Positions 27,179 to 46,461 of a DNA stretch of 64,000 nucleotides are shown piece after piece. The position numbers and the translations under genes are program-made. This stretch comes from Thiotrichaceae bacterium UBA7357 (GTDB lineage: Bacteria; Pseudomonadota; Gammaproteobacteria; Eutrophobiales; Eutrophobiaceae). The stretch is taken from the NCBI GenBank assembly GCA_002470825.1, contig DKOR01000014.1, forward strand, positions 7,021 to 71,020, given 5' to 3'. Numbering within the stretch: position 1 is the stretch's first letter; each line of letters starts with the position of its first letter. The notes below the pieces were generated by a model. The model was given only the letters and a program-made list of their open reading frames with translations, searched no databases and had not been told where the DNA came from.

Positions 27179-27213
27179 GGTGACTGCTAGAAAAGAATTA
27201 TCCAGCAGTCACC
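27179..27213 (-). terminator. intrinsic-terminator-like hairpin between the DUF1329 and BNR genes
   Basis: 10-bp perfect stem GGTGACTGCT/AGCAGTCACC with a 15-nt loop. On the minus-strand transcript it is followed by AUUUUUAUUU (plus-strand AAATAAAAAT at 27169-27178). Confidence 0.4.
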
Positions 27214-27248
27214 TTTGTGGGGAGAACAATATTAAAACTAATTTATTC

Positions 27249-28526: not shown

Positions 28527-28614
28527 ATATAAATACTCCTACCTTTTTTAAAATCGTCCTGCATCACTGCAGGGCATTATGGTTAAATCATTTTTCATAT
28601 TTTTACTACTTAGA

Positions 28615-32911: not shown

Positions 32912-33898
32912 TTAATCAATATCAACAAGCACCACTCCGTAAAAACCAGCTTGCTCGACCTTCTGATGTGCGGACGCAATATTTTCTAGACTCTCTCGAT
33001 GAGCAATTCGATGTTGTAACATTTTTCCATCTAGAAGATCGGTGATGTCTTCAATTGCATCATACTTTGCTATCTCAGGCATTGCATAGACTAAGACCAT
33101 GCGTATAGTTAAATCCTGAAATAACATTCTTCTAAAAGGTAATGTAGGTTCTGCCACTTGCATTGAGGCATAGGTTGCTATCGTTGCACTCGTAGCGGCG
33201 ACATCGAGTAATATAGGCAAATTACCACCAAACTCTCCATCGACAATACGTTCTACCCCATTACCTTCAGTTAACTCAGCTACGGTACTCAGTAAGTCTT
33301 CTCCTTGATGAGAACAAACAGCATCGGCACCTGCAGCATAACAATGCGCTTCTGCTGCAGGATTACCAGCAGTCGCTATGACTGTTGCACCGGCATATTT
33401 TGCCCATTGAATAGCATAATGACCGACTCTTCCCGCGCCACCCGTCACAAGAAGAGTTTGACCGTCGACTAATCCATCGGCAAAGACACAGCGATGCGCT
33501 GTCATTGCCGGTATACCCATGCAGGCACCCACCTCAAAATCAACACTGTCGGGTAGCCAAACTGCACGATTCGAATTGACTGTGACATATTCTGCAGCAG
33601 TACCAAAACGTCGACCATACTGAGCTTCATAGACCCATACTCGCTCACCAATTCTTGATGACGGAACACCACGTCCAACCTCTTCAATAATCCCAGCTCC
33701 ATCACTATGGGGAATAATAAACCCATCTTTTAGTAGATCAGGGAAAGCCCCGTTGCGTTTTTTTACATCTGAAGGATTTACCGCTGAACAATTCAGACGA
33801 ACGAGTACCTCTCCATGGATTGGCATAGGTTGGTCAAGCTCCATGATCTCCAACACTTTATCTGCTGGGCCCATGGTTTTGAATGCAGCTGCCTTCAT
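32912..33898 (-). CDS. MDR-superfamily NAD(P)H-dependent oxidoreductase (quinone oxidoreductase / alcohol dehydrogenase-like)
   Basis: 328 aa with a GroES-like N-terminal domain and a Rossmann domain (TGGAGRVGHYAIQWAK). It is the last gene of the ketone-carboxylase operon. Confidence 0.8.
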   Translation of the reverse strand: MKAAAFKTMGPADKVLEIMELDQPMPIHGEVLVRLNCSAVNPSDVKKRNGAFPDLLKDGFIIPHSDGAGIIEEVGRGVPSSRIGERVWVYEAQYGRRFGTAAEYVTVNSNRAVWLPDSVDFEVGACMGIPAMTAHRCVFADGLVDGQTLLVTGGAGRVGHYAIQWAKYAGATVIATAGNPAAEAHCYAAGADAVCSHQGEDLLSTVAELTEGNGVERIVDGEFGGNLPILLDVAATSATIATYASMQVAEPTLPFRRMLFQDLTIRMVLVYAMPEIAKYDAIEDITDLLDGKMLQHRIAHRESLENIASAHQKVEQAGFYGVVLVDID

Positions 33899-33935
33899 TG
33901 AATATCTCTCATTAATTTTATAATCCCGTTAACTT

Positions 33936-35201
33936 TTACTGAATTCGACGCAAAACAGATACACAATTTGTGACACCTGAGCCGCCAATATTAACTGTCA
34001 TTGCGAGTTCCGGCTGTCCTTTTACTGCCACTCCAATGGGTGTGCCCGTTAACTGTTTATACATAAGTGCATGCATTGATGCACCTGTTGCACCAACGGG
34101 GTGTCCTTTAGATTTAAGTCCTCCTGAAAGGTTTATTGGACACTCACTATCAGCATCATATTTCCCTTCCATAAAATCATGTCCCGCACGACCTTGCTCT
34201 GATAAACCCATTGCTTCTACACATAGCATTTGATTAATAGTAAAACAATCATGAACTTCAGCCATGTCAATATCTGTCACCTGCACTCCAGCCTCAGCAC
34301 AAGCTTGTTGCACACCATGTTTCGCTGCTTGAAGTTCATGCAGTGTCTCTTTACGTTCACTCATCATCATTCGTTGCGTCACATGTCCTATCCCTGAAAG
34401 TTCAACAGCGTGTTTAAAGTTTGCTTTGGCATTATCAGTTGATGTGAGTACGACAGCTGCTGCGCCATCCGAAATTAATGAACAATCATGCAGTCGTAAC
34501 GGCGGAGCAATCAATGGATTACTACCTTTACCTGAATCAGGTAAATCAAGAATTGCTTTTGCAGAGAGCAGTTGCTTTTTATCGGGTAAACTACCCGGCC
34601 CAAAGTGGGCCAAAGGATTTTGAATACCATTACGATAATTTTGCGCAGCGACATGGGCAAACATAGTACGCAGTTTTTCATCACTCAGACCATGCTTTGT
34701 TTGATATGCCTTAGCAAGTTCTCCAAACAATCCTGGAAAAGTAACGCCGATAGAACCTTCATCAGGCCAATATGAACTACACGCCAACGCATGCGTTACA
34801 CCTTTCGTATCAAGCAGACTCATCTTCTCCACACCAAGAGCGAGTACATTTTTAAATCGTCCACTAGCAACAGCATAGGCTGCGTTATAAATAGCTATCG
34901 AAGATGTTGCACAAGCCCCTTCTGTTCTTGTTGTTGGCTTATAAAGTAAACCCTTAGGGTCTATTTCTAGAGCCAGTGGGCCAACATGTTCCTGGTTGAC
35001 AAACAATGAAGGTGAACATGAGCCCAACCAAATAGCATCAATATCCTTTGCTTCTAGACCGGCATCGGCAATCGCACCGGCACCCGCTTCTACTATCAGT
35101 TCATAGAATGATTTTAAATCTTCTACTTTACCCGTCTCTCTATCACGCTTAACAAATGCACCAAACTGAGTGTTGTGTGCACCAACTATACTAATCTCCA
35201 T
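33936..35201 (-). CDS. thiolase-family protein (SCP-x / lipid-transfer-protein type 3-ketoacyl-CoA thiolase)
   Basis: 421 aa thiolase-fold sequence with an N-terminal catalytic Cys region (EGACATSSIAI) and the C-terminal thiolase domain. Confidence 0.75.
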   Translation of the reverse strand: MEISIVGAHNTQFGAFVKRDRETGKVEDLKSFYELIVEAGAGAIADAGLEAKDIDAIWLGSCSPSLFVNQEHVGPLALEIDPKGLLYKPTTRTEGACATSSIAIYNAAYAVASGRFKNVLALGVEKMSLLDTKGVTHALACSSYWPDEGSIGVTFPGLFGELAKAYQTKHGLSDEKLRTMFAHVAAQNYRNGIQNPLAHFGPGSLPDKKQLLSAKAILDLPDSGKGSNPLIAPPLRLHDCSLISDGAAAVVLTSTDNAKANFKHAVELSGIGHVTQRMMMSERKETLHELQAAKHGVQQACAEAGVQVTDIDMAEVHDCFTINQMLCVEAMGLSEQGRAGHDFMEGKYDADSECPINLSGGLKSKGHPVGATGASMHALMYKQLTGTPIGVAVKGQPELAMTVNIGGSGVTNCVSVLRRIQ

Positions 35202-35260
35202 TGAGCTACCCTCTCCACCTAGAACAGTGAATTAAAAATATGAAAAATAAAAATTTGAAT

Positions 35261-36826
35261 CTATATTTTACGACCAACTTTTTCCCAAAAATATTTACGG
35301 ACTTCTTTTTTTAATACTTTACCTACTGGGCTACGTGGTAGCTCATCCCAAATCAATATTTCTTTAGGTGACTTAACACTACCTAACTTCAGTTTACAAA
35401 GTGCAATAATTTCTTGTGTATCTAGTTTAACTTTTGGGTCTTTTAACTCAACTACAGCTGTGACTTGCTCACCCCATTTTTCATCCGGAATACCTATAAC
35501 ACAACAGTCTTTTATTGACGAGTGCCCCCAAATGAGTTGTTCAATCTCTCCTGGATAAACATTAAAACCACCCGATATAATCATGTCGCGTTTACGATCA
35601 ACTATCGTTAAATATCCTTCATTATCAAAGATGCCAACATCGCCCGTTTTCTGCCAACCATTTACACGTATTTCATTTGTTGCTTCTGAGTCATTAAAAT
35701 AACAACGCATTAATAAATCACCTTTAACAGCAATTTCACCCTCCTTCCCGAGAGGAAGAATTTTGTCATCATCATCCAAAATAACCACTTCAATTTGTGG
35801 TGCAATTTTACCACAGGACCGAATCTTGTAAAAATCATCCATTTCAACCGCATCCACGTGATCTTCAGCAGATAAAAAGGTACAAACCATTGGTGACTCT
35901 GCTTGCCCATAAGTTTGAACCATCACGGGACCGAAAACATCAATAGCCTCTTTAAGTTTTTCTACTGACATTGGTGCAGCGGCATACCAAAAGTAACGTA
36001 AACTTGTATAATCATAATTATTCACACCCTTGTGTGCTAACAACATATAAATCGCGGTCGGAGGCAAAAATAAGTGTGTAATTTTGTGTTTTTCGATGAT
36101 AGATAATATAACATCTGGAGTCATACCTTCCATCACTATGATGTTTGAACCTTGTAATATAAGCGCAAATGATGCTACCCCAGCTGCATGTGTAATTGGA
36201 GCGCTAACAAGATAAGAGGAAGCAATATCCGGTATAGGCATTAATTTATTCTGAATCGACACCATTGACTGCCACGTTAAATAACTCCACTCTGCTAATT
36301 TAGAATCACCCGTCGTTCCACCGGTCGGAAATAAGCTTATTAAATCAGGATCATTTCCCCTTATTAGTCTTTCTTCCGCTTGTTCAATGAATTCATTTTT
36401 AAAATTTTGGATGTCAATCCCTGCGATTTTCTTACCCGTAAATGATAAACAATTTTCATTGTTGTATTGAACAACAAGTTGATGATTAGCATCAAGAATA
36501 TCTAAGTCAACAAAAAGCAATCTTGCATTAGATTTTTTAAGCAATTTTAAATTTGCTTCAATGGTATTTCGAAGATTGAGTGGCAACCATATTGCACCTA
36601 TTTCAGAAATGGCAAAGATACAGCAATAAGTTGCAATAGAATTTGGTGCGTAGGTCGCAACAATATCTTGCTGTTTAACGCCCTTTTCTTTTAATTGCAT
36701 GGCAACATGCTGTGCAATATTAAACATTTCTCGATAACTTAGTGAGAAGTCGTTATTGATATCAATAAATTGCGCATCACCTTTACTAAAAGCCGGACTA
36801 TTTTCGAGAAAATCGATAATACGCAT
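35261..36826 (-). CDS. acyl-CoA synthetase (AMP-forming, class I adenylate-forming enzyme)
   Basis: 521 aa with the AMP-binding motif (FPTGGTTGDSKLAEWSY), a Gly-rich linker and the C-terminal conserved Lys region. Confidence 0.85.
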   Translation of the reverse strand: MRIIDFLENSPAFSKGDAQFIDINNDFSLSYREMFNIAQHVAMQLKEKGVKQQDIVATYAPNSIATYCCIFAISEIGAIWLPLNLRNTIEANLKLLKKSNARLLFVDLDILDANHQLVVQYNNENCLSFTGKKIAGIDIQNFKNEFIEQAEERLIRGNDPDLISLFPTGGTTGDSKLAEWSYLTWQSMVSIQNKLMPIPDIASSYLVSAPITHAAGVASFALILQGSNIIVMEGMTPDVILSIIEKHKITHLFLPPTAIYMLLAHKGVNNYDYTSLRYFWYAAAPMSVEKLKEAIDVFGPVMVQTYGQAESPMVCTFLSAEDHVDAVEMDDFYKIRSCGKIAPQIEVVILDDDDKILPLGKEGEIAVKGDLLMRCYFNDSEATNEIRVNGWQKTGDVGIFDNEGYLTIVDRKRDMIISGGFNVYPGEIEQLIWGHSSIKDCCVIGIPDEKWGEQVTAVVELKDPKVKLDTQEIIALCKLKLGSVKSPKEILIWDELPRSPVGKVLKKEVRKYFWEKVGRKI

Positions 36827-36856
36827 TTTGACTCTCGAAAAAGGTTGCTTTAGGTA

Positions 36857-37714
36857 CTAGGCTCTTAAGTTTGAAAGTGTATCAAGAACTAACTCAGGTG
36901 TTGTTTCTTCTGGAATCGTTAGATAATTAAAGCCATTCCCTACTGGGGGAACAGTACTCATCGATTTCCACAATGCTTTAGAAATGTCTTTGCCACATGA
37001 ACTATCAGACACTGAACAAGTAGACGGTACAATAGAAAAATTAACATCCTCCGGAACATTAAAACTAGTATCTGAAAATGGCAAATGTATACCAACTGAC
37101 CAACGATAATGTTTTGCAACATTATAAATAGGTTGATACCAAGATAACTCTTTTGCACTTTCGGGCATTGATTCCGGAACTTCTCGCAATAAAATACCTG
37201 AGAGATTTACTTCACTAAAGTATCTTAGATAGTCAGCAACATACATTGATGCCGTATCGATGTGTGCCTCTTCCGGCGCTACATCAACAGTATTAGCTGC
37301 TTTATTAGCCTTGATGAGCAAAGAACGTGGTGAGGGCATCACTAATACGATGGGCACTGAATCACCGTAATTATTACTTATTGCCGTCAATACTTCTGCT
37401 AGTAATTCACGTGGTCCATATGCTTCTAACATTGCTTTAGCAGCAACTGTAATACGTTTCTTACCTGCCATCGATGGAATCGCTTCTTCATCTTCTAACA
37501 TCCAATGATGAAAAAGATCCCATATATCTATGACGACTACATCTGCGTTTACTAAGCCATGCGCTTGTCCATAAAAAGACATATAAGATGCCGGGTTTGC
37601 CCATGGATTCTCTCCCTCAGCCAATAACAATTTCTTGGTATAGGCGTTGAAATCAATCCAGAGTTTTGGAGTTCCCTCTCCAGCAGATAAATAGTTAACT
37701 AAATCTATCGCCAT
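36857..37714 (-). CDS. hypothetical protein tightly coupled to the carboxylase HyuB-like subunit (candidate accessory/epsilon-like subunit)
   Basis: 285 aa with no recognisable motifs. Its start codon lies 2 nt from the stop of the upstream HyuB-like gene. Confidence 0.5.
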   Translation of the reverse strand: MAIDLVNYLSAGEGTPKLWIDFNAYTKKLLLAEGENPWANPASYMSFYGQAHGLVNADVVVIDIWDLFHHWMLEDEEAIPSMAGKKRITVAAKAMLEAYGPRELLAEVLTAISNNYGDSVPIVLVMPSPRSLLIKANKAANTVDVAPEEAHIDTASMYVADYLRYFSEVNLSGILLREVPESMPESAKELSWYQPIYNVAKHYRWSVGIHLPFSDTSFNVPEDVNFSIVPSTCSVSDSSCGKDISKALWKSMSTVPPVGNGFNYLTIPEETTPELVLDTLSNLRA

Positions 37715-37716
37715 AC

Positions 37717-39996
37717 TTAGGTACGTTTATCCTTAGCTTCTATACCAGAAGCTTTTCTAACCTCTTCAAGCTCTTCTTCGAGCTTTCTAATTTCCACATC
37801 TTTAGGATGTTCAAAGTAAACCGCACCAGGGTTATTAGGATCACGTTTGTCATCATTGCTGCCTGCATAGACAAAGCTCAAATCACTATTCCATGAACCA
37901 TAGAAAGGAATGTCTTTTGGAGGCACATCCTTGACATGCTTCTTAATAAATTCAGCATAGGGTACGCCCTGTTTCTTACGCTGTTCTCTATAAGCATCAC
38001 GCAACTTTTTGGTTGCTGCTTCATCAACGATTAAAGTTTCGTCATCAAACTCGACCTTATAAAGTTTCCTCACCCAATCACGTGTTGTTAAATTTTCTTC
38101 TATATCTTTAATAGCTAAAGCCGGATCGCGTTCCAGTGGGTCGCCGTAACCACCGCCAGAACCTTGAGAGATCATGTACAACTCACCACGTTTAGAGATA
38201 GAGAAGCCCATACCCATATGATGCGACGTATAGTTTGCATCTTCATAGGGCCGTTCATTCATGGTTTCTTCTATTGAATGTTTAAATTTTTCTGGGTTTT
38301 TAAGCATCTCTTCATAAACATCGACACCTGTTACTTTACATAATGGGTATGCGCCCGGAGCATAGCCACCAAACAAACCTGACAAAGGCGGTACTTTTGA
38401 TCCAACACAGGTGGTCATGAAACCCCACTGATCACTATCTTTGGTTGCAACCATTTGTGTATAACCCATACCACCACGATATTTACCAGGTGCTTGTGTA
38501 TTCCTAGTCATTTTTTTCGATACTAACTGCAAGAAAGGTACATCTTCTTCGTTCATCTCTTGCTCACCGATATCTGCCATGGATGCAAAAATTGGTGCTA
38601 AAGCATGTTCTCCATCCAAGTCCATACGAGCACCACCGCCCATACCATTTAAATCCGCACAAAGGTTACCAAGCATTTCACCATGTTGACTAACGCCACC
38701 CCAAATGTATGTACAGATCATGTTAAACCACGGTGCTACAACACGTGTATATTTAACCGGTACGCTATACAGAAATTTCGCAGCCGCTTGTTGGGCGATA
38801 GTGAATGAAAGAAAGATCGACATCAAACTCTGGGAGTTTGGCGCATTCACGCTACCATCAACAATAGAACAAGGTGGCGTTACCACTTCAATTGGGGCAA
38901 AACCCGCCTGACCACGTGGTAAATCTGGCCAGATATGATTCAAGAACGCTTGAGACATCATGCCTTTACAACCAGGTAATGCGGTATTTATAGCGCGGTT
39001 AGTGATCTCTGGGCTAGATCCTCTTAGGTCGAATATCAAACGATCACCTTTTTTGGTGAGGATACAATTTAATTTTATCAATGCATTTTCGCGTAAGGTA
39101 CTATCCATTGTACAGTAGGTACGGACCGTCATATCTGGCCATTCTTTAATACGGCGTCGTACTTCAGCCATGACGTTATCATTGGTACTACGTAGACATG
39201 CTGTTAACGCTTGAGGTCCGTCTATTGCCAATACTTCCCTAATGCGTTTTTCAAGACGCATACAAGCAAAAAGTTTTACCTTCATGTCTTCATACTGCAG
39301 CTTTGGCTCACGAACCGAGTTTTGCAAAAATGTCAGAAGATCCTTTTTCAGTTCATAGTTCTCGACAACTCTGAAAGGCGACATCTTCAAACCTTCATCA
39401 AATGGGCTTTCAGCCATTGATGGCATTCCACCTGGCTCGATAGCGCCGTTCTCACCTTCATGCACTGTAGAAGCGACCCAGCAAACCAGTTCACCTTCAT
39501 GGAAGATTGGCATGATCATACTTTGGTCAGTGTTATGTACATTCCCATAACGTGAGTCATTGTGAATAAAACCATCACCTTGTCTCAAACCAACTGTTGG
39601 TTCATTAATCCAGTTTTTAATAATAAATTTTATTGGATGATGCACCAGTACAGAGAAGATAAGTACGCCACCAGCACTACCAATGGTCAAATCACCCGAG
39701 GCAGAGTAGATACCGGTAATGACGTCACCCCATTTTGCACCTGGAGCCGCACCCATTTGTTCAAGCATTTCATAACTTTCGTCGCAAGCCGATTGCATAC
39801 GGTCACGTATCGAAGCCATTTGGTGTGGGTCAGTAAACTTCTTTACACTTTCGGCTTCATAATCTGTAATCGGCATGATGTCATGCGATTTCATTATTTC
39901 CGGATCAGGTCCGAGGAATAAAGTCGTTTCTTTAAGGAATTTTGCAACTAATTCTTTATCTTCAAGAACAGCTTCTGCGCTAAGTTTATCGTTCAT
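37717..39996 (-). CDS. hydantoinase B/oxoprolinase-family subunit of an ATP-dependent ketone carboxylase (acetone/acetophenone carboxylase alpha-type)
   Basis: 759 aa HyuB-family protein. Its size and family match AcxB/Apc HyuB-type subunits. Confidence 0.9.
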   Translation of the reverse strand: MNDKLSAEAVLEDKELVAKFLKETTLFLGPDPEIMKSHDIMPITDYEAESVKKFTDPHQMASIRDRMQSACDESYEMLEQMGAAPGAKWGDVITGIYSASGDLTIGSAGGVLIFSVLVHHPIKFIIKNWINEPTVGLRQGDGFIHNDSRYGNVHNTDQSMIMPIFHEGELVCWVASTVHEGENGAIEPGGMPSMAESPFDEGLKMSPFRVVENYELKKDLLTFLQNSVREPKLQYEDMKVKLFACMRLEKRIREVLAIDGPQALTACLRSTNDNVMAEVRRRIKEWPDMTVRTYCTMDSTLRENALIKLNCILTKKGDRLIFDLRGSSPEITNRAINTALPGCKGMMSQAFLNHIWPDLPRGQAGFAPIEVVTPPCSIVDGSVNAPNSQSLMSIFLSFTIAQQAAAKFLYSVPVKYTRVVAPWFNMICTYIWGGVSQHGEMLGNLCADLNGMGGGARMDLDGEHALAPIFASMADIGEQEMNEEDVPFLQLVSKKMTRNTQAPGKYRGGMGYTQMVATKDSDQWGFMTTCVGSKVPPLSGLFGGYAPGAYPLCKVTGVDVYEEMLKNPEKFKHSIEETMNERPYEDANYTSHHMGMGFSISKRGELYMISQGSGGGYGDPLERDPALAIKDIEENLTTRDWVRKLYKVEFDDETLIVDEAATKKLRDAYREQRKKQGVPYAEFIKKHVKDVPPKDIPFYGSWNSDLSFVYAGSNDDKRDPNNPGAVYFEHPKDVEIRKLEEELEEVRKASGIEAKDKRT

Positions 39997-40010
39997 AATA
40001 TATTACCCCG

Positions 40011-42158
40011 TTATTTCTTTGCTTCGTCGCGAAGGAACCAAACGGCACCTTGCTCAGCAGATACATAATTCCAACCCTTTTCGATAAGGTAGGTCGTTAC
40101 ATCAGATGCCACAATACCCGGCCCCTCTATTTGAGTACCCGCGGAAATATCATCTTTATTCCAGACCGGCGTATCGATCGCTTTACTTTCACCGACAAAA
40201 TGACACTTACGTGTTGATGATGGTTTCGGTGGCGCTTGTCGTTTATCTTCAGCAACTGGCTTAATATGCTTAAAGTGAACCGTATCATGCTCTACATAAG
40301 AAGCGACGCGAATTGTATTGATACGAATGCCGGCCTCTGGTGCCTGACTACCTTCACCAAAACGCTTACCGTAATCTGTAGAAAAGAGATCGACTATTTT
40401 CAATACATCCAGTGCTGACTCAACGGAATGTTTTGGTATAACAACGGTTGTTTGTACAAGTTGGTTACCGTAGCGCATATCAAGCTCAAGTGAATGTAGA
40501 ATATCGCCTTCATTTGCACCCTGTCTTGATAAATCAGCTCTACCTCTTTCACTTAGCTCAGCGACAATGTCATTAAATCGCGGATAGTTATCAAATACTT
40601 TTCTGCTATTAGAATCGTAAAGCACCATAAACAATGATGATTCATGGATATGCATCTGGTGCATATTACCCGCACCCACCGCAGAAAATACGGAACTCAT
40701 TGGTGTCGCTAATATTTTATTGATGTTCAAACGACTCGCGATACCACAGCAATGCAAAGGTCCATTTCCGCCATACGCCAGCATGGTAAAATCTTCAGGG
40801 TCATAGCCTCTGGCACGTAACTCAGTGTTCACACCATTCGCCATATTGGCATCGACTTTTTCTTTAATCATCATAGCAGCTTCCACCACTTCGATATCAA
40901 GATCATCACAAAGAGTCTCTTCTATGGCAAAGTTAGAACGCTTAGGGTTTAACGGAATATCGCCACCTGCGTAATTTTCAGCATCGAGATAACCCAAGAC
41001 CAAATCGGCATCGGTTACCGTTGGGCTCATGCCGCCACGGTCATAACAGGCTGGCCCTGGATCAGAACCTGCGCTCTTTGGTCCCACAGCAACAGTGTTG
41101 TACATGCGATCATATGAGGCGATTGAACCACCACCTGCACCCAATGTTACCAAGTGAACCATCGGTACAGACACCATCCAACGATCAATTACCGGGTTGA
41201 AATCATAATGTTTGATGCCACCCTCAACGACGATACCAATATCGTAGCTGGTACCACCCATATCGGTAGCAACAACACTACCCAGATCGGCTTCTTTCGC
41301 TAAATGTTCTGAGGCACTGATTCCTGAAACGGGTCCAGAATGAATTGTTTGCAATGCATCAGTTGAGTTTAACTGTGCCATACCACCTGAGTTATGAATC
41401 ACCAACATCGGCTTCTCATAAGCATGTGCGCGCAGGTTTTGCTCCAACTGCGTCATCGCATGATACATAGTCGAATGTAAATAACCGTCGACAATCGCTG
41501 AAGAGGCTCGAACATATTCACCTTTACGCCCCGCAACACGATGAGAAAGAATTACAGGAATAGCGCCTAATAGATGAGAAGGATATTCTTCAAGAATTAT
41601 CTCCTCTACACGCTTCTCATTCATTGGATTTACCACTGAATTCACGAAACAGATGACGATCACTTGAGCACCTTTATCGAATAAGGTTCTGATCTTGTGT
41701 CTAACGTCATCTTCATCAAGCGGCATAACAACCTTGCCCTCAAAATCTAAACGTTCACGAACTCCTTCTATCATATTAGGTAATACCAATGGTTCTGGTC
41801 GTCTAGCATCAGGTAAATTTGCCATACCTAACTTATCCAAACCTTCACCATAACCACGTGCTCGACTGAGTGGTACCGTTGCTTCAAAGCCTGCAGTGAC
41901 TAACATACCCATACGCGGACCATTGTGCTCAATCAAGGCATTCGTGCCTAAGGTCGTTGCGTAGCGAACCGAGTCGACTTCAGACAATATATCTTCCATG
42001 GTGATATTCAGTTCTTGGTATGCCTTTTCAACTGCTTCGTTGAAACCCAAGGCTAAATTCTGGTGTGTTGTTAATGCTTTGGTTTCAATATATTTATTAT
42101 CCCAAACCAAAAAACAATCGGTAAATGTGCCGCCGATATCTACTGATATTCGTTTCAT
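40011..42158 (-). CDS. hydantoinase A/oxoprolinase-family subunit of ketone carboxylase (acetone carboxylase beta-type)
   Basis: 715 aa with the N-terminal ATPase motif MKRISVDIGGTFTDCFLV (ASKHA fold), followed by the hydantoinase_A domain. Confidence 0.9.
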   Translation of the reverse strand: MKRISVDIGGTFTDCFLVWDNKYIETKALTTHQNLALGFNEAVEKAYQELNITMEDILSEVDSVRYATTLGTNALIEHNGPRMGMLVTAGFEATVPLSRARGYGEGLDKLGMANLPDARRPEPLVLPNMIEGVRERLDFEGKVVMPLDEDDVRHKIRTLFDKGAQVIVICFVNSVVNPMNEKRVEEIILEEYPSHLLGAIPVILSHRVAGRKGEYVRASSAIVDGYLHSTMYHAMTQLEQNLRAHAYEKPMLVIHNSGGMAQLNSTDALQTIHSGPVSGISASEHLAKEADLGSVVATDMGGTSYDIGIVVEGGIKHYDFNPVIDRWMVSVPMVHLVTLGAGGGSIASYDRMYNTVAVGPKSAGSDPGPACYDRGGMSPTVTDADLVLGYLDAENYAGGDIPLNPKRSNFAIEETLCDDLDIEVVEAAMMIKEKVDANMANGVNTELRARGYDPEDFTMLAYGGNGPLHCCGIASRLNINKILATPMSSVFSAVGAGNMHQMHIHESSLFMVLYDSNSRKVFDNYPRFNDIVAELSERGRADLSRQGANEGDILHSLELDMRYGNQLVQTTVVIPKHSVESALDVLKIVDLFSTDYGKRFGEGSQAPEAGIRINTIRVASYVEHDTVHFKHIKPVAEDKRQAPPKPSSTRKCHFVGESKAIDTPVWNKDDISAGTQIEGPGIVASDVTTYLIEKGWNYVSAEQGAVWFLRDEAKK

Positions 42159-42217
42159 AATCTACTTTCCTATAACTTTTTAGTAGTTTGATTTATTGTT
42201 TTAGTAAACTTTATTAA

Positions 42218-42625
42218 TTAGTGGCGATGTCTATGGCGCTCAACCTCACCTAAAACATCAGGCCCTTTCGTCGCCTCTGTGATCTCTTCTCGGTGACTCC
42301 ACTGTTCTTTAAGTGCATCAACATCCACTTCCATATCATAGAGCGGTTCATGATTCGGCAAAGTGTTTTCAACTTCAATCTGCGTACCACAACTTGGGCA
42401 ATAATATTCAAGAATATTGACCCAGTCTTTATCAGGACAAAATGTAAACTTATATTTTTCGGGGTCGATAACGTGTGGATGAATATCTGCTGGGTCGCGG
42501 TTATAAACCAGCAACCCTTCTTTGTAATTTCCACGTGCCGAATTGATTACATGATCACAAACACGACATTCCCAATTCTCTGTATCTAAATCGATACGAA
42601 GATATTCAGTCATTAATACTTTCAT
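42218..42625 (-). CDS. small zinc-finger subunit, acetone carboxylase gamma-like
   Basis: 135 aa with two Cys pairs (CRVCDH … YYCPSCGTQIEVENTLP) aligning with the remembered AcxC C-terminal motif (EYFCPECGTLHDVEAPTP). Confidence 0.75.
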   Translation of the reverse strand: MKVLMTEYLRIDLDTENWECRVCDHVINSARGNYKEGLLVYNRDPADIHPHVIDPEKYKFTFCPDKDWVNILEYYCPSCGTQIEVENTLPNHEPLYDMEVDVDALKEQWSHREEITEATKGPDVLGEVERHRHRH

Positions 42626-44562
42626 TATTTAGCCCCCTTAGTCAGACAGATATCACCTGCCTCGGTCACAACAAATTCCCAACCTTCACGTACAAGACAC
42701 GTAAAGTAATCTTCTTCAATAACAGCTGGGCCAGCAGCATGGTCGCCCGGCTTCATGTCGTTCACACTATAAACTGAAACATCTTGGCTTTTCAGATCAC
42801 TACCTACAATTGTTCGTGACCCTGATGCAGCAGCAGCCTTGCCTTTCTTGATTTTGAACTGCTTATCATCTTCAGTCTTTAGGCGTTTAGTCGCGATCAA
42901 TTCGAGCGTGACTGAATCCGCTTTTTCTAAAGCTTTAGGCAGTGCAACCTTGCCATTCAATTGATGGGTAGACTCTTTCGAATCTGATTCACTAACCATT
43001 AGCGCGTTGATATCAAAGTCGCCTTTCGCATAGCCTTCAGCAAACATATCACGTTCTGCGCGTTCAATAAGGTCCGCATGAGCTGACTTGAGAGCGTCTT
43101 GATTGTTAGCGGGCAATACAACGGCATAACTCTGTCCTATATCACATGAGCCTATTCCAAAGGCACTAAAAATAGCCGCAGTTTTTGGTACATACACAGT
43201 ATTAATGCCTGCTATTTCAGCTATACCACATGCATTCATCGGGCCTGCGCCACCAAATGCCAACAGCACAGTGTCCTTCGAAACATTACCAAAGTCTTTC
43301 ATACCATCAGCAATCTTTTGCTCATAAGCATCACTAAGCTTATGCAGTGCTTCATCAACAGAAATGCCTAAAGGCGATGCTACGTTTTCATCGATAGCCG
43401 CACGACCACGCTCAATATCGAGCTTTAGACCACCACCGAAATAGGTTGCAGGATCGAGTACGCCCAAGAGAAGATTGACATCTGTCATTGTTGAACTCTT
43501 TCCGCCACGACCAAAACTTGCTGGTCCAGGAACAGCGCCAACACTTTCAGGACCCACCTGAATATCGCCATCTTTAACAGACAAAATTGAACTACCACCA
43601 ACACCTTGACTATTTATCTCACACAATCCAAAGGAGATGGGCACACCCTCCATTTTACCATGTCGTTGTTCGTTTAATTTCAGATCAACCAGGTGACCAA
43701 TATCCGTTGTCGTACCACCGACATCCATAGTCATTACATCTGAAAGATTGTATTGCTTACTGAATGTTTTGACGCCTTCCATGCCACCGCGCGGACCAGA
43801 ACTATAAGTCTTAAGTGCAATCGTTTTTGCAACACGCGATGCATTGCCATCGTTACGAAAGATGAGAAGAGGGTTTTTTGTACGATATTCACGTAATCGA
43901 TTTTCAGCGTTATACAGGAAACTTTCCATCGCAGGATGCAAGAATGAATTAGTCAACGCCGTCCAACCGCGTCGGTCAGCTAAAACATCATCAACTAGCT
44001 CACTGGCAAAAAGTATTGGCACAGCACCTAGCAAGTGACGCGGATAAATATCGAATGCTATCCTCTTAAATTGAGCCTCAGAGATAGCCGCATTATCAAC
44101 ATCAAAACAAACAACGAGTCTATTAGCTCCCATTCCGGTAAGTCTGGTAATCACCGTAGCGTTATCTGCAGCCTTCGATTCATGACCTAAATCAGCAAGA
44201 TCAACCTCACATATTCGATCTCCGACTAAAAAGTCGAATAAATCTTCGTCTTGTTCGCGCATTCTTTTAACTAAGCCAGCATTTTTCTTATTTATTATCA
44301 GACCCAGTTTTGGTCCCTTACGCTCAACAATAGCATTAGTTCCCTGTGTAGTTGAATAACGAATATGCTCAACTTCCATCAAGAGTTTTGCGACATCTTC
44401 TTCTCCGTAAATCACGGTTGAGATAGATTTTAATCCATCAAAAAAACATTTACTTAAGTCGTACGGCGTCGTGAGTGTCTTGGTCTTGTAGACATTCTTA
44501 TCTTTCAATATACATATATCAGTCAACGTTCCACCGTTGTCAATATTAACTAGCATTCCCAT
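42625..44562 (-). CDS. second hydantoinase A-family subunit (alpha-prime-like) of ketone carboxylase
   Basis: 645 aa with an N-terminal NIDNGGTLTDICIL ASKHA motif and a hydantoinase_A core. It is the first gene of the operon and overlaps the gamma-like gene by 1 nt. Confidence 0.85.
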   Translation of the reverse strand: MGMLVNIDNGGTLTDICILKDKNVYKTKTLTTPYDLSKCFFDGLKSISTVIYGEEDVAKLLMEVEHIRYSTTQGTNAIVERKGPKLGLIINKKNAGLVKRMREQDEDLFDFLVGDRICEVDLADLGHESKAADNATVITRLTGMGANRLVVCFDVDNAAISEAQFKRIAFDIYPRHLLGAVPILFASELVDDVLADRRGWTALTNSFLHPAMESFLYNAENRLREYRTKNPLLIFRNDGNASRVAKTIALKTYSSGPRGGMEGVKTFSKQYNLSDVMTMDVGGTTTDIGHLVDLKLNEQRHGKMEGVPISFGLCEINSQGVGGSSILSVKDGDIQVGPESVGAVPGPASFGRGGKSSTMTDVNLLLGVLDPATYFGGGLKLDIERGRAAIDENVASPLGISVDEALHKLSDAYEQKIADGMKDFGNVSKDTVLLAFGGAGPMNACGIAEIAGINTVYVPKTAAIFSAFGIGSCDIGQSYAVVLPANNQDALKSAHADLIERAERDMFAEGYAKGDFDINALMVSESDSKESTHQLNGKVALPKALEKADSVTLELIATKRLKTEDDKQFKIKKGKAAAASGSRTIVGSDLKSQDVSVYSVNDMKPGDHAAGPAVIEEDYFTCLVREGWEFVVTEAGDICLTKGAK

Positions 44563-44885
44563 AATAGTTTTCCTTGGTTTTGCATTGTTGAATTTATGTT
44601 AAATCTTAAAATACTGTTTTTATTTCGTTTTTCTTTGATTTTGGTCCTGCACTTTTTGTTTCTTTTATAGTTTTTACTTTTAATAAACAACACCATATCC
44701 CATACATAGACTATGCCAAGATTTTAACTTCGTATAAATTAATCTGTATAATCCGTTTTAATTGAAATTTAGATATATAACTAAACTCATGTCACCAGCC
44801 GCAAGAGTTCCATTTTAGAGCACACAAGAGTAATTCGTTTCAAATTTGAACAGCGTCTTTTTATTTTAGAAATACAAATCAAGCC

Positions 44886-45923
44886 TCATACATCTTTCAC
44901 ACGGACCATTAGCTTACCTGTATTATCACCAGTATAGAGTTTCTTAACTGTCTCTACAGCGTTTTCAAGTCCATCTACGACGTCCTGTTGGACTTTAATT
45001 TTGCCTTCAGACATCCATTGAGTAATTGCCGCTATTGCTTCAGGGTAACGCTCCATATAATCGAGTATTATAAAACCCTCAACCTTAAGTCGATTCATCA
45101 GGATCATTGGATAATTTTTTGGTCCTGGGACTTCTTCGCTGGAATTATAATGTGCTATTAAACCGCATACAGATATACGGCCGAACATATTCATATGTTT
45201 GAGACAAGTGTCTAAGATCTCTCCACCCACATTTTCAAAATAGACATCAATGCCATTAGGACAAGTGCGTTCTAACGCTTTTGATAAATCTTCTGTCTTA
45301 TAGTTGATGGCTTCATCAAAGCCGAGCTCTTCAGTTATCCATTTACATTTTTCATCTGTACCAGTGAGTCCAACTACATGACAGCCCTTGATTTTAGCAA
45401 TCTGCCCGACGATCGACCCTACTGAACCAGCAGCAGTTGAAATAACAACAGTTTCTCCCGATTTCGGTTTCGTGATTTCAAGCAAACCAAAATAAGCCGT
45501 CGGCGCAGCGATAGCGAAAGTACCAAAAGCATCAATAACTGGAACAGACCCTGTATCACCTAATAAACTCACAGTTTCAGTAGTGCCAATTTGATAATCT
45601 GCCCAAGTACCAAGACCGCTAACTATGTCACCTTTTCTAAATGCTGAGTTTTTACTTTGTATCACAGTTCCACAAACGACACCACGCATCGGGGCATTAA
45701 TACTAACTGGAGGCATGTATTGCTCAACGTCACTCATCCACATCCGATTAGTCGCATCCAGCGACAAATAATTAAGACGAAACAGACATTCTTCGTCTGC
45801 TGGTTCAGGCATAGGCTCTTCATCATAAGTTAAATCACCCTCACATATATCACCAACAGGTCGTTTACGTAATCTCCAAACGTGATTGACTTCAGTCATG
45901 AACTTTTTCCCTTGATTTAGCAA
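44886..45923 (-). CDS. NADP-dependent oxidoreductase, MDR family (2-alkenal/enone reductase, YncB/CurA/PTGR-like)
   Basis: 345 aa with the Rossmann motif AAGSVGSIVGQIAKIKG and the overall MDR pattern. The real start is probably the internal Met (MTEVNHVW) at about 45899. Confidence 0.8.
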   Translation of the reverse strand: MLNQGKKFMTEVNHVWRLRKRPVGDICEGDLTYDEEPMPEPADEECLFRLNYLSLDATNRMWMSDVEQYMPPVSINAPMRGVVCGTVIQSKNSAFRKGDIVSGLGTWADYQIGTTETVSLLGDTGSVPVIDAFGTFAIAAPTAYFGLLEITKPKSGETVVISTAAGSVGSIVGQIAKIKGCHVVGLTGTDEKCKWITEELGFDEAINYKTEDLSKALERTCPNGIDVYFENVGGEILDTCLKHMNMFGRISVCGLIAHYNSSEEVPGPKNYPMILMNRLKVEGFIILDYMERYPEAIAAITQWMSEGKIKVQQDVVDGLENAVETVKKLYTGDNTGKLMVRVKDV

Positions 45924-46002: not shown

Positions 46003-46461
46003 TCAATCATTTACCAACTGAAATACTTCATACTCGACTTTACCAGGCACCAAACGACCTTGTGCCACACAGAAAATGTTGTTTACCCAATCATATCTTT
46101 CATCGCCTGTTTGCATGCGTGGATTAATAAAGAAATTTTGTTCTCCAAAATCAGTCTCACCTTCTCCTGCAAGTACCCCCATTATTTCAGAGGTCAGTTC
46201 TATTACTCCAGAATATTGAACATAAATATTTGCACCATCGTCTGTTTCAAAACTTGCTCTTACATCTAAATGGCCATAGCCTTTGTCGTCAATTGTCATC
46301 CAGTCTGCACAACCCGCATCACGAATCTTTCCGTTGAGTTTTTCACCCTTAAATTCACCGCCATGCACTTCAAAAGTCATTCGTTTACCAAATGGTCCGT
46401 TGCCGACATCAAGTGCCGTGCCTAAGTTTGCATAATAAGTAAAAAGTGATTCAAGTTTCAT
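46003..46461 (-). CDS. hypothetical protein (DUF3237-like beta-barrel suspected)
   Basis: 152 aa with no catalytic motifs. The family assignment is from memory and weak. Confidence 0.45.
   Translation of the reverse strand: MKLESLFTYYANLGTALDVGNGPFGKRMTFEVHGGEFKGEKLNGKIRDAGCADWMTIDDKGYGHLDVRASFETDDGANIYVQYSGVIELTSEIMGVLAGEGETDFGEQNFFINPRMQTGDERYDWVNNIFCVAQGRLVPGKVEYEVFQLVND

Follow-up and report, generated by a model that had tools for sequence, protein, structure and literature searches.

The closest described relative of the locus analysed here is the acetophenone carboxylase (Apc) of Aromatoleum aromaticum EbN1 (PDB 5L9W for the core, 9FOU for epsilon), whose genes stand in the order apcABCDE (PMC5214803); its gamma subunit binds Zn/Hg through Cys22/25/75/78, and its alpha-prime subunit is devoid of the fingerprint [RK]ERxDxxG found in alpha (PMC5214803). 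The AcxABC enzymes of Xanthobacter autotrophicus and Aromatoleum aromaticum (5SVB, 5M45; PMC5543143) belong to the same superfamily and likewise convert a ketone to a beta-keto acid in an ATP- and bicarbonate-dependent manner, but have three subunits, without alpha-prime and epsilon, and a single kinase site that is used sequentially, hydrolysing ATP to AMP (PMC5214803); their downstream pathway includes a 3-oxoacid CoA-transferase and a thiolase, as the present locus does (10.64898/2026.08.16.745133). N-methylhydantoinase (7HK5), the caprolactamase CapAB (6YRA) and 5-oxoprolinase have the HyuA/HyuB-like folds in common with the present locus and also use ATP to phosphorylate a carbonyl oxygen, but hydrolyse amides and form no C-C bond; the family's hydrolases are built from just two subunits, with neither gamma nor alpha-prime nor epsilon (PMC5214803).

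The window (the whole stretch of DNA that was analysed, 64,000 nucleotides from Thiotrichaceae bacterium UBA7357) holds a locus that, with a probability of about 70%, encodes an Apc-like five-subunit, biotin-independent, ATP-dependent ketone carboxylase of a distinct clade, coupled to CoA activation and thiolysis and under sigma-54 control.

Operon layout and core subunits

An operon of eight genes had been proposed in an earlier note on this DNA; all eight open reading frames are intact, lie on the minus strand and agree exactly with the coordinates given there, and all but the 285-aa one carry the expected Pfam domains (Table 1). From the first gene to the last, the intergenic gaps are -1, 59, 14, 2, 30, 59 and 37 nt. 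The order alpha-prime, gamma, alpha, beta, epsilon, CoA ligase is that of Apc, and the five-gene carboxylase arrangement is found again in about 39 loci of other organisms, in part of them accompanied by the CoA ligase and the thiolase; it thus goes far beyond chance. Clusters of this kind had been thought rare, but the gamma probe matched 175 species-representative genomes and the epsilon-like family forms 514 clusters at 50% identity: five-subunit clusters are common in genomes, and rarity is limited to their characterisation.

Table 1. Features of the carboxylase locus and its surroundings (window coordinates).
Feature	Position	Strand	Basis or remark
3-oxoacid CoA-transferase subunits A and B	21752..23122	-	above TIGR02429 and TIGR02428 cut-offs
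AmeABCD-like envelope system: DUF1302, DUF1329, BNR/Ycf48-like, MMPL/RND	23495..30324	-	Pfam
Second candidate sigma-54 promoter, TGGCAT-AGAAC-TTGTT	30427..30442	-	118 nt upstream of DUF1302 gene
Sigma-54-dependent activator, 667 aa, N-terminal MimR_N/GAF sensor	30806..32809	+	Pfam
Quinone-oxidoreductase-like MDR, 328 aa, accessory reductase	32912..33898	-	MDR domain
SCP2-type thiolase, 421 aa	33936..35201	-	thiolase domain
Acyl-CoA ligase, FadD/MenE-like, 521 aa	35261..36826	-	AMP-binding domain
Epsilon-like, 285 aa, uroporphyrinogen-decarboxylase-fold barrel	36857..37714	-	remote ApcE homologue
Beta, ApcD-like HyuB, 759 aa	37717..39996	-	Hydantoinase_B, 5L9W_A match
Alpha, ApcC-like, 715 aa	40011..42158	-	Hydantoinase_A, 5L9W_B match
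Gamma, 135 aa, Cys4 zinc-finger motif	42218..42625	-	Acetone_carb_G Pfam domain
Alpha-prime, ApcA-like ASKHA kinase paralogue, 645 aa	42625..44562	-	NCBIfam and motif match
Candidate sigma-54 (-24/-12) promoter, TGGCAT-AGTCT-ATGTA	44703..44718	-	156 nt upstream of first gene
Curcumin-reductase-like enone reductase (MDR)	44886..45923	-	Pfam, NCBIfam
DUF3237 protein	46003..46461	-	neighbour of enone reductase

The proposed subunit inventory, two HyuA-like proteins, a Cys4 gamma and a HyuB-like protein, is borne out. Pfam assigns Hydantoinase_A with its N and C domains to alpha-prime and alpha (E 6e-61 and 3e-74), Acetone_carb_G to gamma (E 1e-33) and Hydantoinase_B to beta (E 2e-75). As in Apc, there are two paralogous ASKHA kinases, each with its ATP motifs (DNGGTLTD, DVGGT and GAVPGP in alpha-prime; DIGGTFTD, DMGGT and GSDPGP in alpha), only one of which, alpha, carries the fingerprint, as RERLDFEG. 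The gamma cysteines C19, C22, C75 and C78 align with the four metal-binding ones of Apc and are all invariant; the AcxABC gamma is also of the Cys4 type but, unlike the roughly 130-aa gamma shared by Apc and this locus, has 168 aa and an N-terminal extension. The beta subunit, 75 aa longer than ApcD, keeps the Asp/His/Asp/His metal-ligand positions (D65/H123/D126/H148 in Apc beta, equivalent to E89/H150/D153/H175 in Acx) and, again as in Apc, Gly-rich segments (449-455, 504-510, 539-546, 610-616). By analogy, alpha-prime is the predicted bicarbonate-activating subunit, and alpha is predicted to bind and phosphorylate the ketone.

The top NCBIfam models for the core subunits are ApcA, ApcB, ApcC and ApcD, in apcABCDE order, with scores 2- to 5-fold under the Apc equivalog cut-offs (339/1250 bits for alpha-prime with the ApcA model, then 121/250, 580/1500 and 305/1500). 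Apc is also the best sequence match of all four, though at an identity of only about 30-50%: in the PDB search, alpha reaches 541 bits with 5L9W_B against 274 with acetone carboxylase and 260 with N-methylhydantoinase, beta 275 with 5L9W_A against 125 with acetone carboxylase, and gamma 99 with 5L9W_C against 33 with acetone carboxylase gamma, AcxABC scoring half of Apc or less. The preference for an Apc-type composition over that of acetone carboxylase thus stands. The public names of identical proteins ('hydantoinase', '5-oxoprolinase', 'N-methylhydantoinase A') would make the complex an ATP-dependent amidohydrolase, a hydantoinase, 5-oxoprolinase or lactamase, with which it has Pfam domains in common; this is highly improbable, since gamma, alpha-prime and an epsilon-like protein are all present here, the solved hydrolases score about half of Apc or less (258-260 bits for alpha, 80-88 for beta, and at most 260 for hydantoinases and lactamases), and the neighbouring genes encode beta-keto-acid-processing enzymes rather than amino-acid or nitrogen metabolism. 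The HyuA- and HyuB-like subunits lie closer to the carboxylases than to the hydrolases, as had been claimed.

The epsilon-like protein

The epsilon-like gene starts 2 nt past the beta stop codon. Its product matches no domain in the Pfam search, does not match the ApcE model NF042977 in the NCBIfam search, and gives nothing with 9FOU by sequence search; kinship with ApcE is detectable only by profile-profile and structure comparison, which together uphold its earlier proposal as the epsilon candidate. Both proteins have a UroD-like fold and the motif NVA[KR]x[HY]R. Relative to (beta/alpha)8 barrels of the uroporphyrinogen decarboxylase/MtaA type, the protein is 50-60 aa shorter and just 11-15% identical, and its family alignment contains zero invariant cysteines; an MtaA-type Cys-containing zinc site is thus unlikely. 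By analogy with ApcE, it is predicted to be a partner of the carboxylase core, and a separate enzymatic role is not proposed.

Clade II and the predicted substrate pocket

Sequence comparison places the carboxylase in a separate, widespread clade ("clade II"), with hosts among Alpha-, Beta- and Gammaproteobacteria, Geobacter and Rhodococcus, and not among the orthologues of Apc. Clade II is monophyletic in 100/100 NJ bootstraps, whereas Apc and clade II together are so in 5/100, the alpha-prime paralogue attaching to clade II through long-branch effects. The four core subunits are 50-58%, 57-73%, 65-77% and 67-72% identical to those of clade II members, against 27-33%, 42-53%, 36-44% and 28-32% for Apc-proper. 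The alpha pocket residues, at positions that represent a tentative assignment from the substrate-free Apc structure (PMC5214803), map to T72, I272, H273, P276, I324, H335 and L336; T-I-H-P-I-H-L here stands against L-F-N-P-I-Q-T in Apc, with five of the seven residues changed and the aromatic residue at position 281 lost. TIHP(I/V)HL recurs in 36/36 clade II loci from genomes and metagenomes, and 4/4 plasmid loci of the clade have TIHPIHL or TVHPIHL; the 46 Apc-proper loci read L/M-F/Y-N/G-P-I/V-Q/E/A-T/S/V/C/G. The clade II pocket is thus predicted to be essentially invariant and unlike that of Apc, and the substrate is most likely not acetophenone but another ketone.

A genuine orthologue of acetophenone carboxylase, supplying benzoyl-CoA metabolism, would explain the top match of every core subunit to Apc, the identical gene order, and the epsilon-like protein followed by a CoA ligase. 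It would, however, leave at odds the changed pocket, the scores under the equivalog cut-offs and an ApcC identity of only 45%, where real orthologues have 51-95%; moreover, the ligase differs in type from Bal (PaaK), control is predicted to be by sigma-54 with an enhancer-binding protein rather than by the two-component system AdiRS (PMC4729919), and no benzoyl-CoA pathway genes are seen in the window. We consider such an orthologue very doubtful.

Predicted activation and cleavage of the product

The ligase of the operon is FadD-like, that of Apc PaaK-like; a PaaK-type ligase comes after apcE in 18/50 Apc-proper loci, and the 521-aa protein is not homologous to that ligase, which holds the Bal position. 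The FadD-like ligase and the thiolase are kept in the clusters of marine relatives, and a thiolase (homologues of 38-41% identity), ligase or ScoAB-type transferase lies close to many other clade II clusters. The predicted role of the ligase is to activate the beta-keto acid formed by the carboxylase, and that of the thiolase to split the 3-oxoacyl-CoA into acetyl-CoA and acyl-CoA; here the thiolase gene lies inside the operon, whereas Aromatoleum encodes its as yet unassigned thiolase elsewhere (PMC4729919). Among solved structures, the thiolase is closest to the archaeal acetoacetyl-CoA thiolase 6ESQ (194 bits) and to SCP2-thiolase-like proteins of trypanosomatids; it is thus no argument for a bulky ketone, at which the earlier note had seen it hint. 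The 3-oxoacid CoA-transferase, with which Apc is not linked, offers a possible alternative route of activation: homologues of its A/B subunits occur near 12/39 clade II loci against 2/50 Apc-proper loci, and in Geobacter-type loci (apc-like genes, cobW, CoA-transferase A/B, thiolase) it takes the place of the ligase. Also within 15 kb are prpBC and a gene for an AtoE-like transporter of short-chain fatty acids.

The last gene resembles NADPH:quinone oxidoreductases, of the zinc-free MDR class, and not zinc alcohol dehydrogenases: its best NCBIfam family is PIG3/quinone oxidoreductase (score under cut-off), its top solved relatives are quinone oxidoreductases, and the GHE zinc motif is not found in its sequence. 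It carries NCSAVNPSD and PHSDGAG, which we take to be reminiscent of zeta-crystallin-type sequences. The related loci L091, L092 and L007 have a counterpart; L094 has none. In the complete route previously envisaged, from secondary alcohol to thiolysis, the oxidation step therefore goes unsupported, while the logic of carboxylation, CoA activation and thiolysis is supported by the conserved ligase and thiolase. The enone reductase was rightly placed just upstream, but is not conserved with the operon: with its DUF3237 neighbour it is retained only in L091, there after a TetR gene, and the neighbourhood comparison finds both absent from L092, L093 and L094. Since the enone reductase is confined to close relatives and its position is upstream of the promoter candidate, the pair is probably a unit apart from the carboxylase operon. 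Overall, the earlier interpretation is partly supported; it passed over the sigma-54 elements, the neighbouring envelope-transport operon, the 3-oxoacid CoA-transferase and the placement in a clade of its own with another substrate pocket.

Regulation, neighbouring operons and the substrate

The candidate promoter of the carboxylase operon has counterparts (TGGCAY-N5-TTGC, score at least 9 of 11) at the equivalent position in 21 of about 31 related loci, among them the marine relatives L091, L092 and L093. It has the nonamer TTGGCATAG in common with the second candidate (at 30442), before the envelope operon; in both, the -12 element is GT, where GC is near-invariant. L091 has the same second site, and the distant relatives L007, L079, L086 and L090 have a canonical TGGCAY-N5-TTGCT before the equivalent operon. 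The activator gene, convergent with the carboxylase operon and divergent from the envelope operon, encodes Sigma54_activat (E 3e-63), GAF, HTH_8 and, from precomputed Pfam matches, PF26965 MimR_N; many clade II clusters have a homologue of 37-43% identity in their vicinity, and its sensor domain is homologous to that of the regulator beside the Rhodococcus RHA1 cluster (E 2e-19). AcxABC is itself controlled by a sigma-54 activator, AcxR, which like MimR is acetone-responsive.

The envelope operon, which has no counterpart in the linkage of Apc, is of the DUF1302/DUF1329/BNR/RND family, described for AmeABCD of Castellaniella defragrans, where the same four Pfam families form an operon beside a catabolic cluster for hydrophobic or solvent-like compounds (PMC6394551; bioRxiv 10.1101/072470); here the order is DUF1302-DUF1329-BNR-MMPL, behind a sigma-54-type promoter. 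The same four genes adjoin clade II clusters in distant genomes, and the system, which may serve uptake, efflux or envelope maintenance, is probably co-regulated with the carboxylase.

Its co-location and common promoter type are consistent with a large hydrophobic methyl ketone as substrate, for instance a 2-alkanone of medium or long chain, or else an isoprenoid or apocarotenoid ketone such as the phytol-derived 6,10,14-trimethylpentadecan-2-one; in that case the AmeABCD-like system would function in uptake or tolerance, while enone precursors would be saturated by the MDR reductases. The FadD-like ligase, the two C=C-reductase-like MDRs in or adjoining the operon, a chemoreceptor that adjoins the cluster in L007 and in a Neorhizobium plasmid, and the marine source, a setting in which chlorophyll-derived ketones are common, fit this reading. 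It is nevertheless tentative at best: ScoAB-type transferases, normally specific for short 3-oxoacids, are enriched around clade II, the enone reductase is not conserved alongside the operon, no atu/liu-type isoprenoid-degradation genes are seen in the window, and the literature search found no link to phytone carboxylation.

A narrower version of the main explanation, somewhat better placed though still doubtful, is a second acetone/butanone carboxylase of Apc architecture, in which either the ligase or the ScoAB-type CoA-transferase would activate acetoacetate or 3-oxopentanoate for cleavage to acetyl-CoA, butanone yielding extra propionyl-CoA for the nearby methylcitrate genes. The enrichment of the CoA-transferase, its substitution for the ligase in Geobacter-type loci, the kinship of the thiolase, the MimR_N/GAF sensor, and the AtoE-like transporter with prpBC all agree with it; the invariance of the pocket over five phylum-level groups, and over marine, freshwater and soil environments, is suggestive of a small molecule that is ubiquitous. 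The sigma-54 linkage of the AmeABCD-like system to the carboxylase in distant genomes is, however, hard to reconcile with a freely diffusing solvent, such systems occurring in monoterpene, p-cresol, phenanthrene and steroid clusters (PMC6394551; 10.1101/072470); the ligase is FadD/MenE-like, not an acetoacetyl-CoA synthetase; and in related marine Porticoccaceae the role is already filled by a canonical acxABC (10.64898/2026.08.16.745133).

Proposed mechanism

From the observed gene content, homology, clade structure, pocket signature, promoter motifs and neighbourhood statistics we infer a reaction, an ATP stoichiometry, subunit roles, regulation and a substrate class for the clade II carboxylase. 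By analogy with Apc, alpha would phosphorylate the ketone enolate and alpha-prime bicarbonate; the coupling of the two half-reactions would require the epsilon-like protein with its uroporphyrinogen-decarboxylase fold, and would yield a beta-keto acid. The FadD-like ligase or the nearby CoA-transferase may convert this acid to its CoA thioester, which the SCP2-type thiolase would cleave to acetyl-CoA and a shorter acyl-CoA. Transcription would start at the sigma-54 promoter, driven by the neighbouring activator with its putative small-carbonyl-sensing domain of the AcoR/MimR type; the same activator probably switches on the envelope operon too. The substrate is most likely an aliphatic methyl ketone of short to medium chain, possibly a hydrophobic one. 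As to substrate size, the context is divided: a small ketone is suggested by the AcoR/MimR-type sensor and the 3-oxoacid CoA-transferase, a hydrophobic one by the FadD-like ligase together with the AmeABCD-like system. Apc is the sole enzyme of its kind studied so far, and clade II would be its widespread sister group.

Subunit composition of the operon

The eight minus-strand ORFs within 32912-44562, which the earlier note had delimited exactly, are all intact (645, 135, 715, 759, 285, 521, 421 and 328 residues, in order) and are separated by gaps of -1, 59, 14, 2, 30, 59 and 37 nt, a spacing that is operon-like. In Pfam, the 645- and 715-residue proteins match Hydantoinase_A with its N- and C-terminal domains, the 135-residue protein matches Acetone_carb_G and the 759-residue protein Hydantoinase_B; the last three carry AMP-binding, thiolase and MDR domains, respectively. 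The best NCBIfam matches along the gene order are ApcA, ApcB, ApcC and ApcD of acetophenone carboxylase (Apc), with none for the 285-residue protein. The order alpha-prime, gamma, alpha, beta, (epsilon), or apcABCD(E), is the hallmark of Apc-like clusters (Weidenweber et al., PMC5214803), and it is the order of the 645-, 135-, 715-, 759- and 285-residue proteins here.

Both kinase paralogues, alpha and alpha-prime, contain the PHOSPHATE 1, PHOSPHATE 2 and ADENOSINE motifs. The alpha fingerprint R/KERiDsxG, which is missing from the alpha-prime paralogue in the Apc type (PMC5214803), occurs as RERLDFEG at residue 134 of the 715-residue protein and is absent from alpha-prime. Gamma is of the short Apc type (about 130 residues, without the N-terminal extension of acetone carboxylase, Acx), and its C19, C22, C75 and C78 align with Cys22, 25, 75 and 78 of Apc gamma. 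Beta carries Gly-rich segments and keeps the Asp/His/Asp/His positions that are the Mn ligands of Acx (PMC5543143). The set of alpha, alpha-prime, beta and small Cys4 gamma subunits of Apc type proposed in the earlier note thus stands, in gene order, kinase paralogue and gamma alike; none of the in-silico findings that the earlier note named as speaking against it was obtained.

By bit score, beta matches Apc beta at 275, against 125 for Acx and 88 and 80 for other family members, and gamma matches Apc gamma at 99, against 33 for Acx gamma; alpha scores 273-274 with acetone carboxylase, 260 with N-methylhydantoinase and 258 with a caprolactamase-type protein. Membership in AcxABC is rejected: Acx has three subunits only and a gamma of ~168 residues, whereas the window adds alpha-prime and the epsilon-like protein, has a gamma of 135 residues, and reaches only 33, 125 and 274 bits (gamma, beta, alpha). 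Membership in the hydantoinases, oxoprolinases or lactamases is rejected likewise, as HyuAB, OplAB and CapAB are two-subunit alpha-beta enzymes without gamma, whereas this operon has one, and as the similarity is lower than to Apc. Proteins identical to the window's are found on many marine metagenome contigs, and the source is accordingly taken to be an uncultured gammaproteobacterium of the sea. In public records of identical proteins, alpha is named 'hydantoinase', '5-oxoprolinase' or 'N-methylhydantoinase A', beta 'acetone carboxylase alpha subunit' or 'hypothetical protein', and the epsilon-like protein always 'hypothetical'; one MAG-derived NCBI record of an identical protein reads 'hydantoinase [Legionellales bacterium]'.

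G+C is ~37% over the window, 0.41-0.445 in the operon and 0.35-0.38 in its flanks; the higher value could reflect horizontal acquisition or amino-acid constraint. Elsewhere in the window, an AdoMet-decarboxylase-like protein, an unannotated 324-residue protein, a DUF350 membrane protein and a 570-residue spermine/spermidine-synthase-like protein, followed by DUF2170 and PspA-family genes, may form an unusual polyamine module.

Features of the window, with positions
Feature	Position	Strand	Remarks
Carboxylase operon	32912-44562	-	eight ORFs
Curcumin-reductase-like MDR (enone reductase)	44886-45923		upstream of operon; Pfam
Sigma-54 enhancer-binding protein, MimR_N/GAF sensor	30806-32809	+	convergent with operon; Pfam
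Candidate sigma-54 site TGGCATAGTCTATGTA	44718-44703	-	position equivalent to canonical sites of marine relatives L091, L092 and L093; GT at -12
Candidate sigma-54 element TTGGCATAG...TGT	30442 (30427-30442)	-	before envelope operon; near-identical to 44703-44718 site
Envelope operon, AmeABCD-like	23495-30324	-	DUF1302-DUF1329-BNR-MMPL
3-Oxoacid CoA-transferase A/B	21752-23122	-	ScoAB-type
Gene run downstream of envelope operon	15769-23122	-	begins with CoA-transferase A/B
Canonical sigma-54 -24/-12 match TGGCATAATGGTTGCT	46800-46815	+	10/11 consensus positions
Monomeric isocitrate dehydrogenase gene	46895-49099		~80 nt downstream of TGGCATAATGGTTGCT
Possible polyamine module	57328-61883	-	

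A clade distinct from acetophenone carboxylase

Of 175 loci confirmed when genomes were scanned with an alignment of gamma, 80 were returned, and tblastn of the window's proteins against these 80 divides them cleanly into two groups: orthologues of Apc (Apc-proper) and an Apc-like sister clade that holds the window's enzyme (clade II). Apc-proper loci are up to 87% (gamma) and 95% (alpha) identical to the proteins of Aromatoleum aromaticum, which was itself not among the loci of the scan, the best gamma match being the one at 87%; orthologues such as locus L011 stand in for it, anchored to the solved epsilon subunit (9FOU) and to the model NF042977. Clade II occurs in Zoogloea, Hydrogenophaga, Acidovorax, Methyloversatilis, Rubrivivax, Ampullimonas and Acinetobacter populi, as well as in Gluconacetobacter, Rhodospirillaceae, Geobacter and Desulfuromonadaceae; on plasmids it is further found in Rhodococcus jostii RHA1 (pRHL2), Rhodococcus sp. 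DK17, Cupriavidus necator N-1 (pBB1) and Neorhizobium petrolearium.

Apc-proper and clade II loci compared: protein identity to the window and neighbouring genes
Property	Apc-proper	Clade II
Alpha-prime identity	27-33%	50-58%
Gamma identity	42-53%	57-73%
Alpha identity	36-44%	65-77%
Beta identity	28-32%	67-72%
285-residue protein identity	no homologue detected	31-37%
3-Oxoacid CoA-transferase A/B	2/50	12/39
PaaK-type ligase (Bal type)	18/50	0/39
CobW-type GTPase	8/50	20/39
ZIP transporter	0/50	7/39

In a neighbor-joining tree of the N-terminal 400 residues of alpha, clade II is monophyletic in 100/100 bootstraps and Apc-proper in 86/100. The monophyly of Apc plus clade II breaks once the alpha-prime paralogue is included, and where clade II stands with respect to Acx is judged by bit score, not from the tree. 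Against the equivalog models of Apc-proper (NF042960, NF042974, NF042975, NF042976, NF042977), the window's subunits score 2- to 5-fold under the cut-offs (339/1250, 121/250, 580/1500 and 305/1500 for alpha-prime, gamma, alpha and beta). An Apc orthologue is rejected on these scores, on the residues of the alpha pocket and on the ligase, which is FadD/MenE-like in the window, whereas the PaaK type expected of a benzoylacetate-CoA ligase occurs in 18/50 Apc-proper loci and in no clade II locus. As judged from these comparisons, the window's enzyme is a member of a distinct clade.

Apc-like clusters apcABCD(E) with a divergent epsilon are known, with one characterised enzyme in the Apc branch (PMC5214803), and a 2026 preprint on Arctic Porticoccus treats the canonical acxABC without assigning the deeper clades (10.64898/2026.08.16.745133). 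Literature searches on phytone carboxylation, butanone carboxylases, the ApcE structure, Geobacter, Rhodococcus RHA1 and Hxd3 turned up no account of clade II or of the pocket, epsilon family and regulon that go with it.

The predicted substrate pocket of alpha

The acetophenone pocket of Apc alpha has been tentatively assigned to L81, F281, N282, P285, I333, Q344 and T345 (PMC5214803). Mapped by pairwise and multiple alignment, these positions are T, I, H, P, I, H and L in the window, with two of seven identical to Apc. The pattern is TIHP(I/V)HL in 36/36 clade II loci from genomes and metagenomes, and TIHPIHL or TVHPIHL in the four plasmid loci, Actinobacteria included. In 46 Apc-proper loci it is L/M-F/Y-N/G-P-I/V-Q/E/A-T/S/V/C/G, narrowing to L/M-F/Y-N-P-I-Q/E-T in the orthologues. 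Relative to Apc, the predicted pocket of clade II has thus lost an aromatic residue and gained two histidines. One pocket, apparently common to the whole clade and unlike that of Apc, argues for a shared substrate other than acetophenone; acetophenone itself is unlikely.

A probable, divergent epsilon subunit

The 285-residue protein has no match in Pfam or NCBIfam (up to E = 10), nor in the PDB, whether by phmmer or with a 35-sequence profile; only profile-profile and fold comparison connected it to anything. Its family is nevertheless judged real, since it has 105 close homologues, its profile finds 514 clusters at 50% identity, and its gene lies directly 3' of beta in every related locus with enough sequence. 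For comparison, the ORFs in the ApcE position were taken from 30 Apc-proper loci; the one from L011 hits 9FOU with an E-value of 5e-95 and reaches 2e-98 with the NCBIfam model of ApcE. The ApcE and 285-residue families match in profile-profile comparison with a probability of 91.7%, and with 96.1% (E 2.9e-9, 241 columns) when the profile is enlarged; they are further linked by weak direct BLAST matches through intermediate sequences and by the common motif NVA[KR]x[HY]R. We conclude that the 285-residue protein is probably a divergent epsilon subunit and not an ApcE equivalog, the model NF042977 giving it no score. The wider epsilon-like family (proteins P0152-P0299) has many members of 270-290 residues that are intermediate between the 285-residue family and ApcE, which, on sequence grounds, implies further, unexplored Apc-like clades.

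Pathway partners

In the marine relatives, whose fifth protein is 59-73% identical to the window's, a FadD-like ligase gene and an SCP2-type thiolase gene always accompany the five genes, and the 328-residue MDR usually does. The enone reductase is found, with a DUF3237 gene and preceded by a TetR gene, in the closest marine relative only and is not considered part of the conserved unit. Other clade II loci frequently have homologues of the thiolase (38-41%) and of the ligase (about 30%); those of Geobacter type instead have cobW, CoA-transferase A/B and thiolase after the apc-like genes. The window's own CoA-transferase scores 258 bits against a cut-off of 128.5 (TIGR02429) and 318 against one of 243.6 (TIGR02428), which places it within the PcaIJ/ScoAB family. 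This pattern of neighbours supports a predicted route from carboxylation through CoA activation of a beta-keto acid to thiolysis, in the order that the earlier note had proposed; the thiolase of the Aromatoleum apc pathway has not been identified (PMC4729919).

Two further suggestions of that note fare less well. The 328-residue MDR resembles NADPH:quinone oxidoreductases and lacks the GHE zinc motif, so it is rejected as a zinc alcohol dehydrogenase and the step from secondary alcohol to ketone is unsupported. The thiolase, read as a hint of a bulky ketone, has archaeal acetoacetyl-CoA thiolase and SCP2-thiolase-like proteins as its nearest solved relatives and says little on bulk; its likeness to acetoacetyl-CoA thiolases and the ScoAB-type transferase favour a small aliphatic ketone (acetone, butanone) as substrate. 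Points in favour of a hydrophobic ketone are the likeness of the ligase to FadD and that of the MDRs to C=C reductases.

Downstream of the envelope operon, the CoA-transferase genes open a run that continues with GFA-family, NTF2-like and glutathione S-transferase genes, an AtoE-like short-chain fatty acid transporter, a GntR/FCD regulator, methylisocitrate lyase and 2-methylcitrate synthase; together their products might process acetoacetate or 3-oxopentanoate as well as propionyl-CoA. In many loci, a metallochaperone GTPase of the CobW/COG0523 family follows the epsilon gene or a ZIP metal transporter lies nearby (clade II: L061, L064, L066-L075, L077, L078, L080, L081, L083-L086, L089, L090, L096; Apc-proper: L012-L019, L022), which suggests a metal-loading requirement for the enzyme family. 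Neither gene is present in the window, and CobW is rejected as a marker specific to clade II, since it adjoins Apc-proper loci too.

Regulation and the envelope operon

Homologues of the window's sigma-54-type activator adjoin many clade II clusters, and its sensor domain shares homology with the regulator adjacent to the RHA1 cluster (27% over 195 residues, E 2e-19). About two-thirds of clade II loci carry a TGGCAY-N5-TTGC motif ahead of the first gene, at a distance of 86-220 nt. In the window, a strict scan requiring GC at -12 gives no hit ahead of the first gene, and the candidate site is seen only by comparison with the relatives. It contains TTGGCATAG, as does the one before the envelope operon, and in both GT replaces the near-invariant GC at -12; in L091, the closest marine relative, GT stands before the DUF1302 operon and GC before the carboxylase operon. 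The Rhodocyclaceae/Zoogloea relatives have an equivalent envelope operon downstream of the carboxylase, with canonical sigma-54 sites. We infer that the carboxylase and envelope operons are probably co-regulated. The Aromatoleum apc-bal genes, unlike these, are associated with the two-component system AdiRS (PMC4729919).

The envelope operon combines DUF1302, DUF1329, BNR and MMPL proteins (PF06980, PF07044, PF14870/PF02012, PF03176) in one cluster, a four-gene set that corresponds to AmeABCD of Castellaniella defragrans and is known from monoterpene, p-cresol, phenanthrene and steroid clusters (PMC6394551; 10.1101/072470). This AmeABCD-like system, together with the chemoreceptors adjacent to the clusters of L007 and the Neorhizobium plasmid, favours a hydrophobic ketone; the sensor, which is of AcoR/MimR type, favours a small one.

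A further site, TGGCATAATGGTTGCT, precedes the isocitrate dehydrogenase gene; on the two strands of the window together, only three matches are this good. No rpoN gene is seen in the window, scans of it for sigma-70 promoters and intrinsic terminators give no excess over shuffled expectation, and an Rfam scan finds one tRNA only.

Proposed reaction and significance

Apc carboxylates acetophenone with the hydrolysis of 2 ATP to 2 ADP. By analogy with Apc (PMC5214803), alpha of the window's enzyme would phosphorylate the ketone enolate and alpha-prime bicarbonate; the epsilon-like barrel would be required for coupling, and the resulting beta-keto acid would be thioesterified and cleaved. The hosts of clade II range from marine bacterioplankton and freshwater Betaproteobacteria to Geobacter and the catabolic plasmids of Rhodococcus, and this ubiquity again favours small ketones. 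We tentatively propose, with a probability of roughly 0.3, that clade II is an unrecognised worldwide class of aliphatic ketone carboxylases, mis-annotated as hydantoinases and oxoprolinases, which would provide a second biological route by which acetone, butanone or higher methyl ketones are assimilated along with CO2; its two-histidine alpha pocket and UroD-fold epsilon, possibly the site of C-C bond formation, would make it a mechanistic variant unlike Apc and Acx.

The clusters in R. jostii RHA1 (L095, RHA1_RS41475-41495), N. petrolearium (L096) and C. necator N-1 (L097) lie on large plasmids and have the clade II pocket signature. In L095 the cluster is joined by a MimR-like regulator and an SCP2-domain protein; L096 includes an rpoN copy of its own, along with cobW, genes for CoA-transferase A/B and one for a PAS chemoreceptor. 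RHA1 and N-1 are tractable strains, in which the question of the substrate is directly testable.

The locus defines a large sister clade of Apc with a different and essentially invariant predicted pocket, its own epsilon family, putative sigma-54-type control and a consistent set of partners that process beta-keto acids. Its value lies in a clade that is coherent, widespread and testable in such hosts, and in connecting the ApcE structure, itself new, with a far larger family of proteins. If the proposal is true, a widespread mis-annotation as hydantoinase or 5-oxoprolinase would be corrected. The uncultured marine Gammaproteobacteria that carry clade II recur in many ocean metagenomes, and should acetone, butanone or some other volatile ketone prove to be the substrate, the enzyme would represent an added, so far unrecognised sink for marine volatile organic carbon and an extra heterotrophic CO2-fixing reaction.
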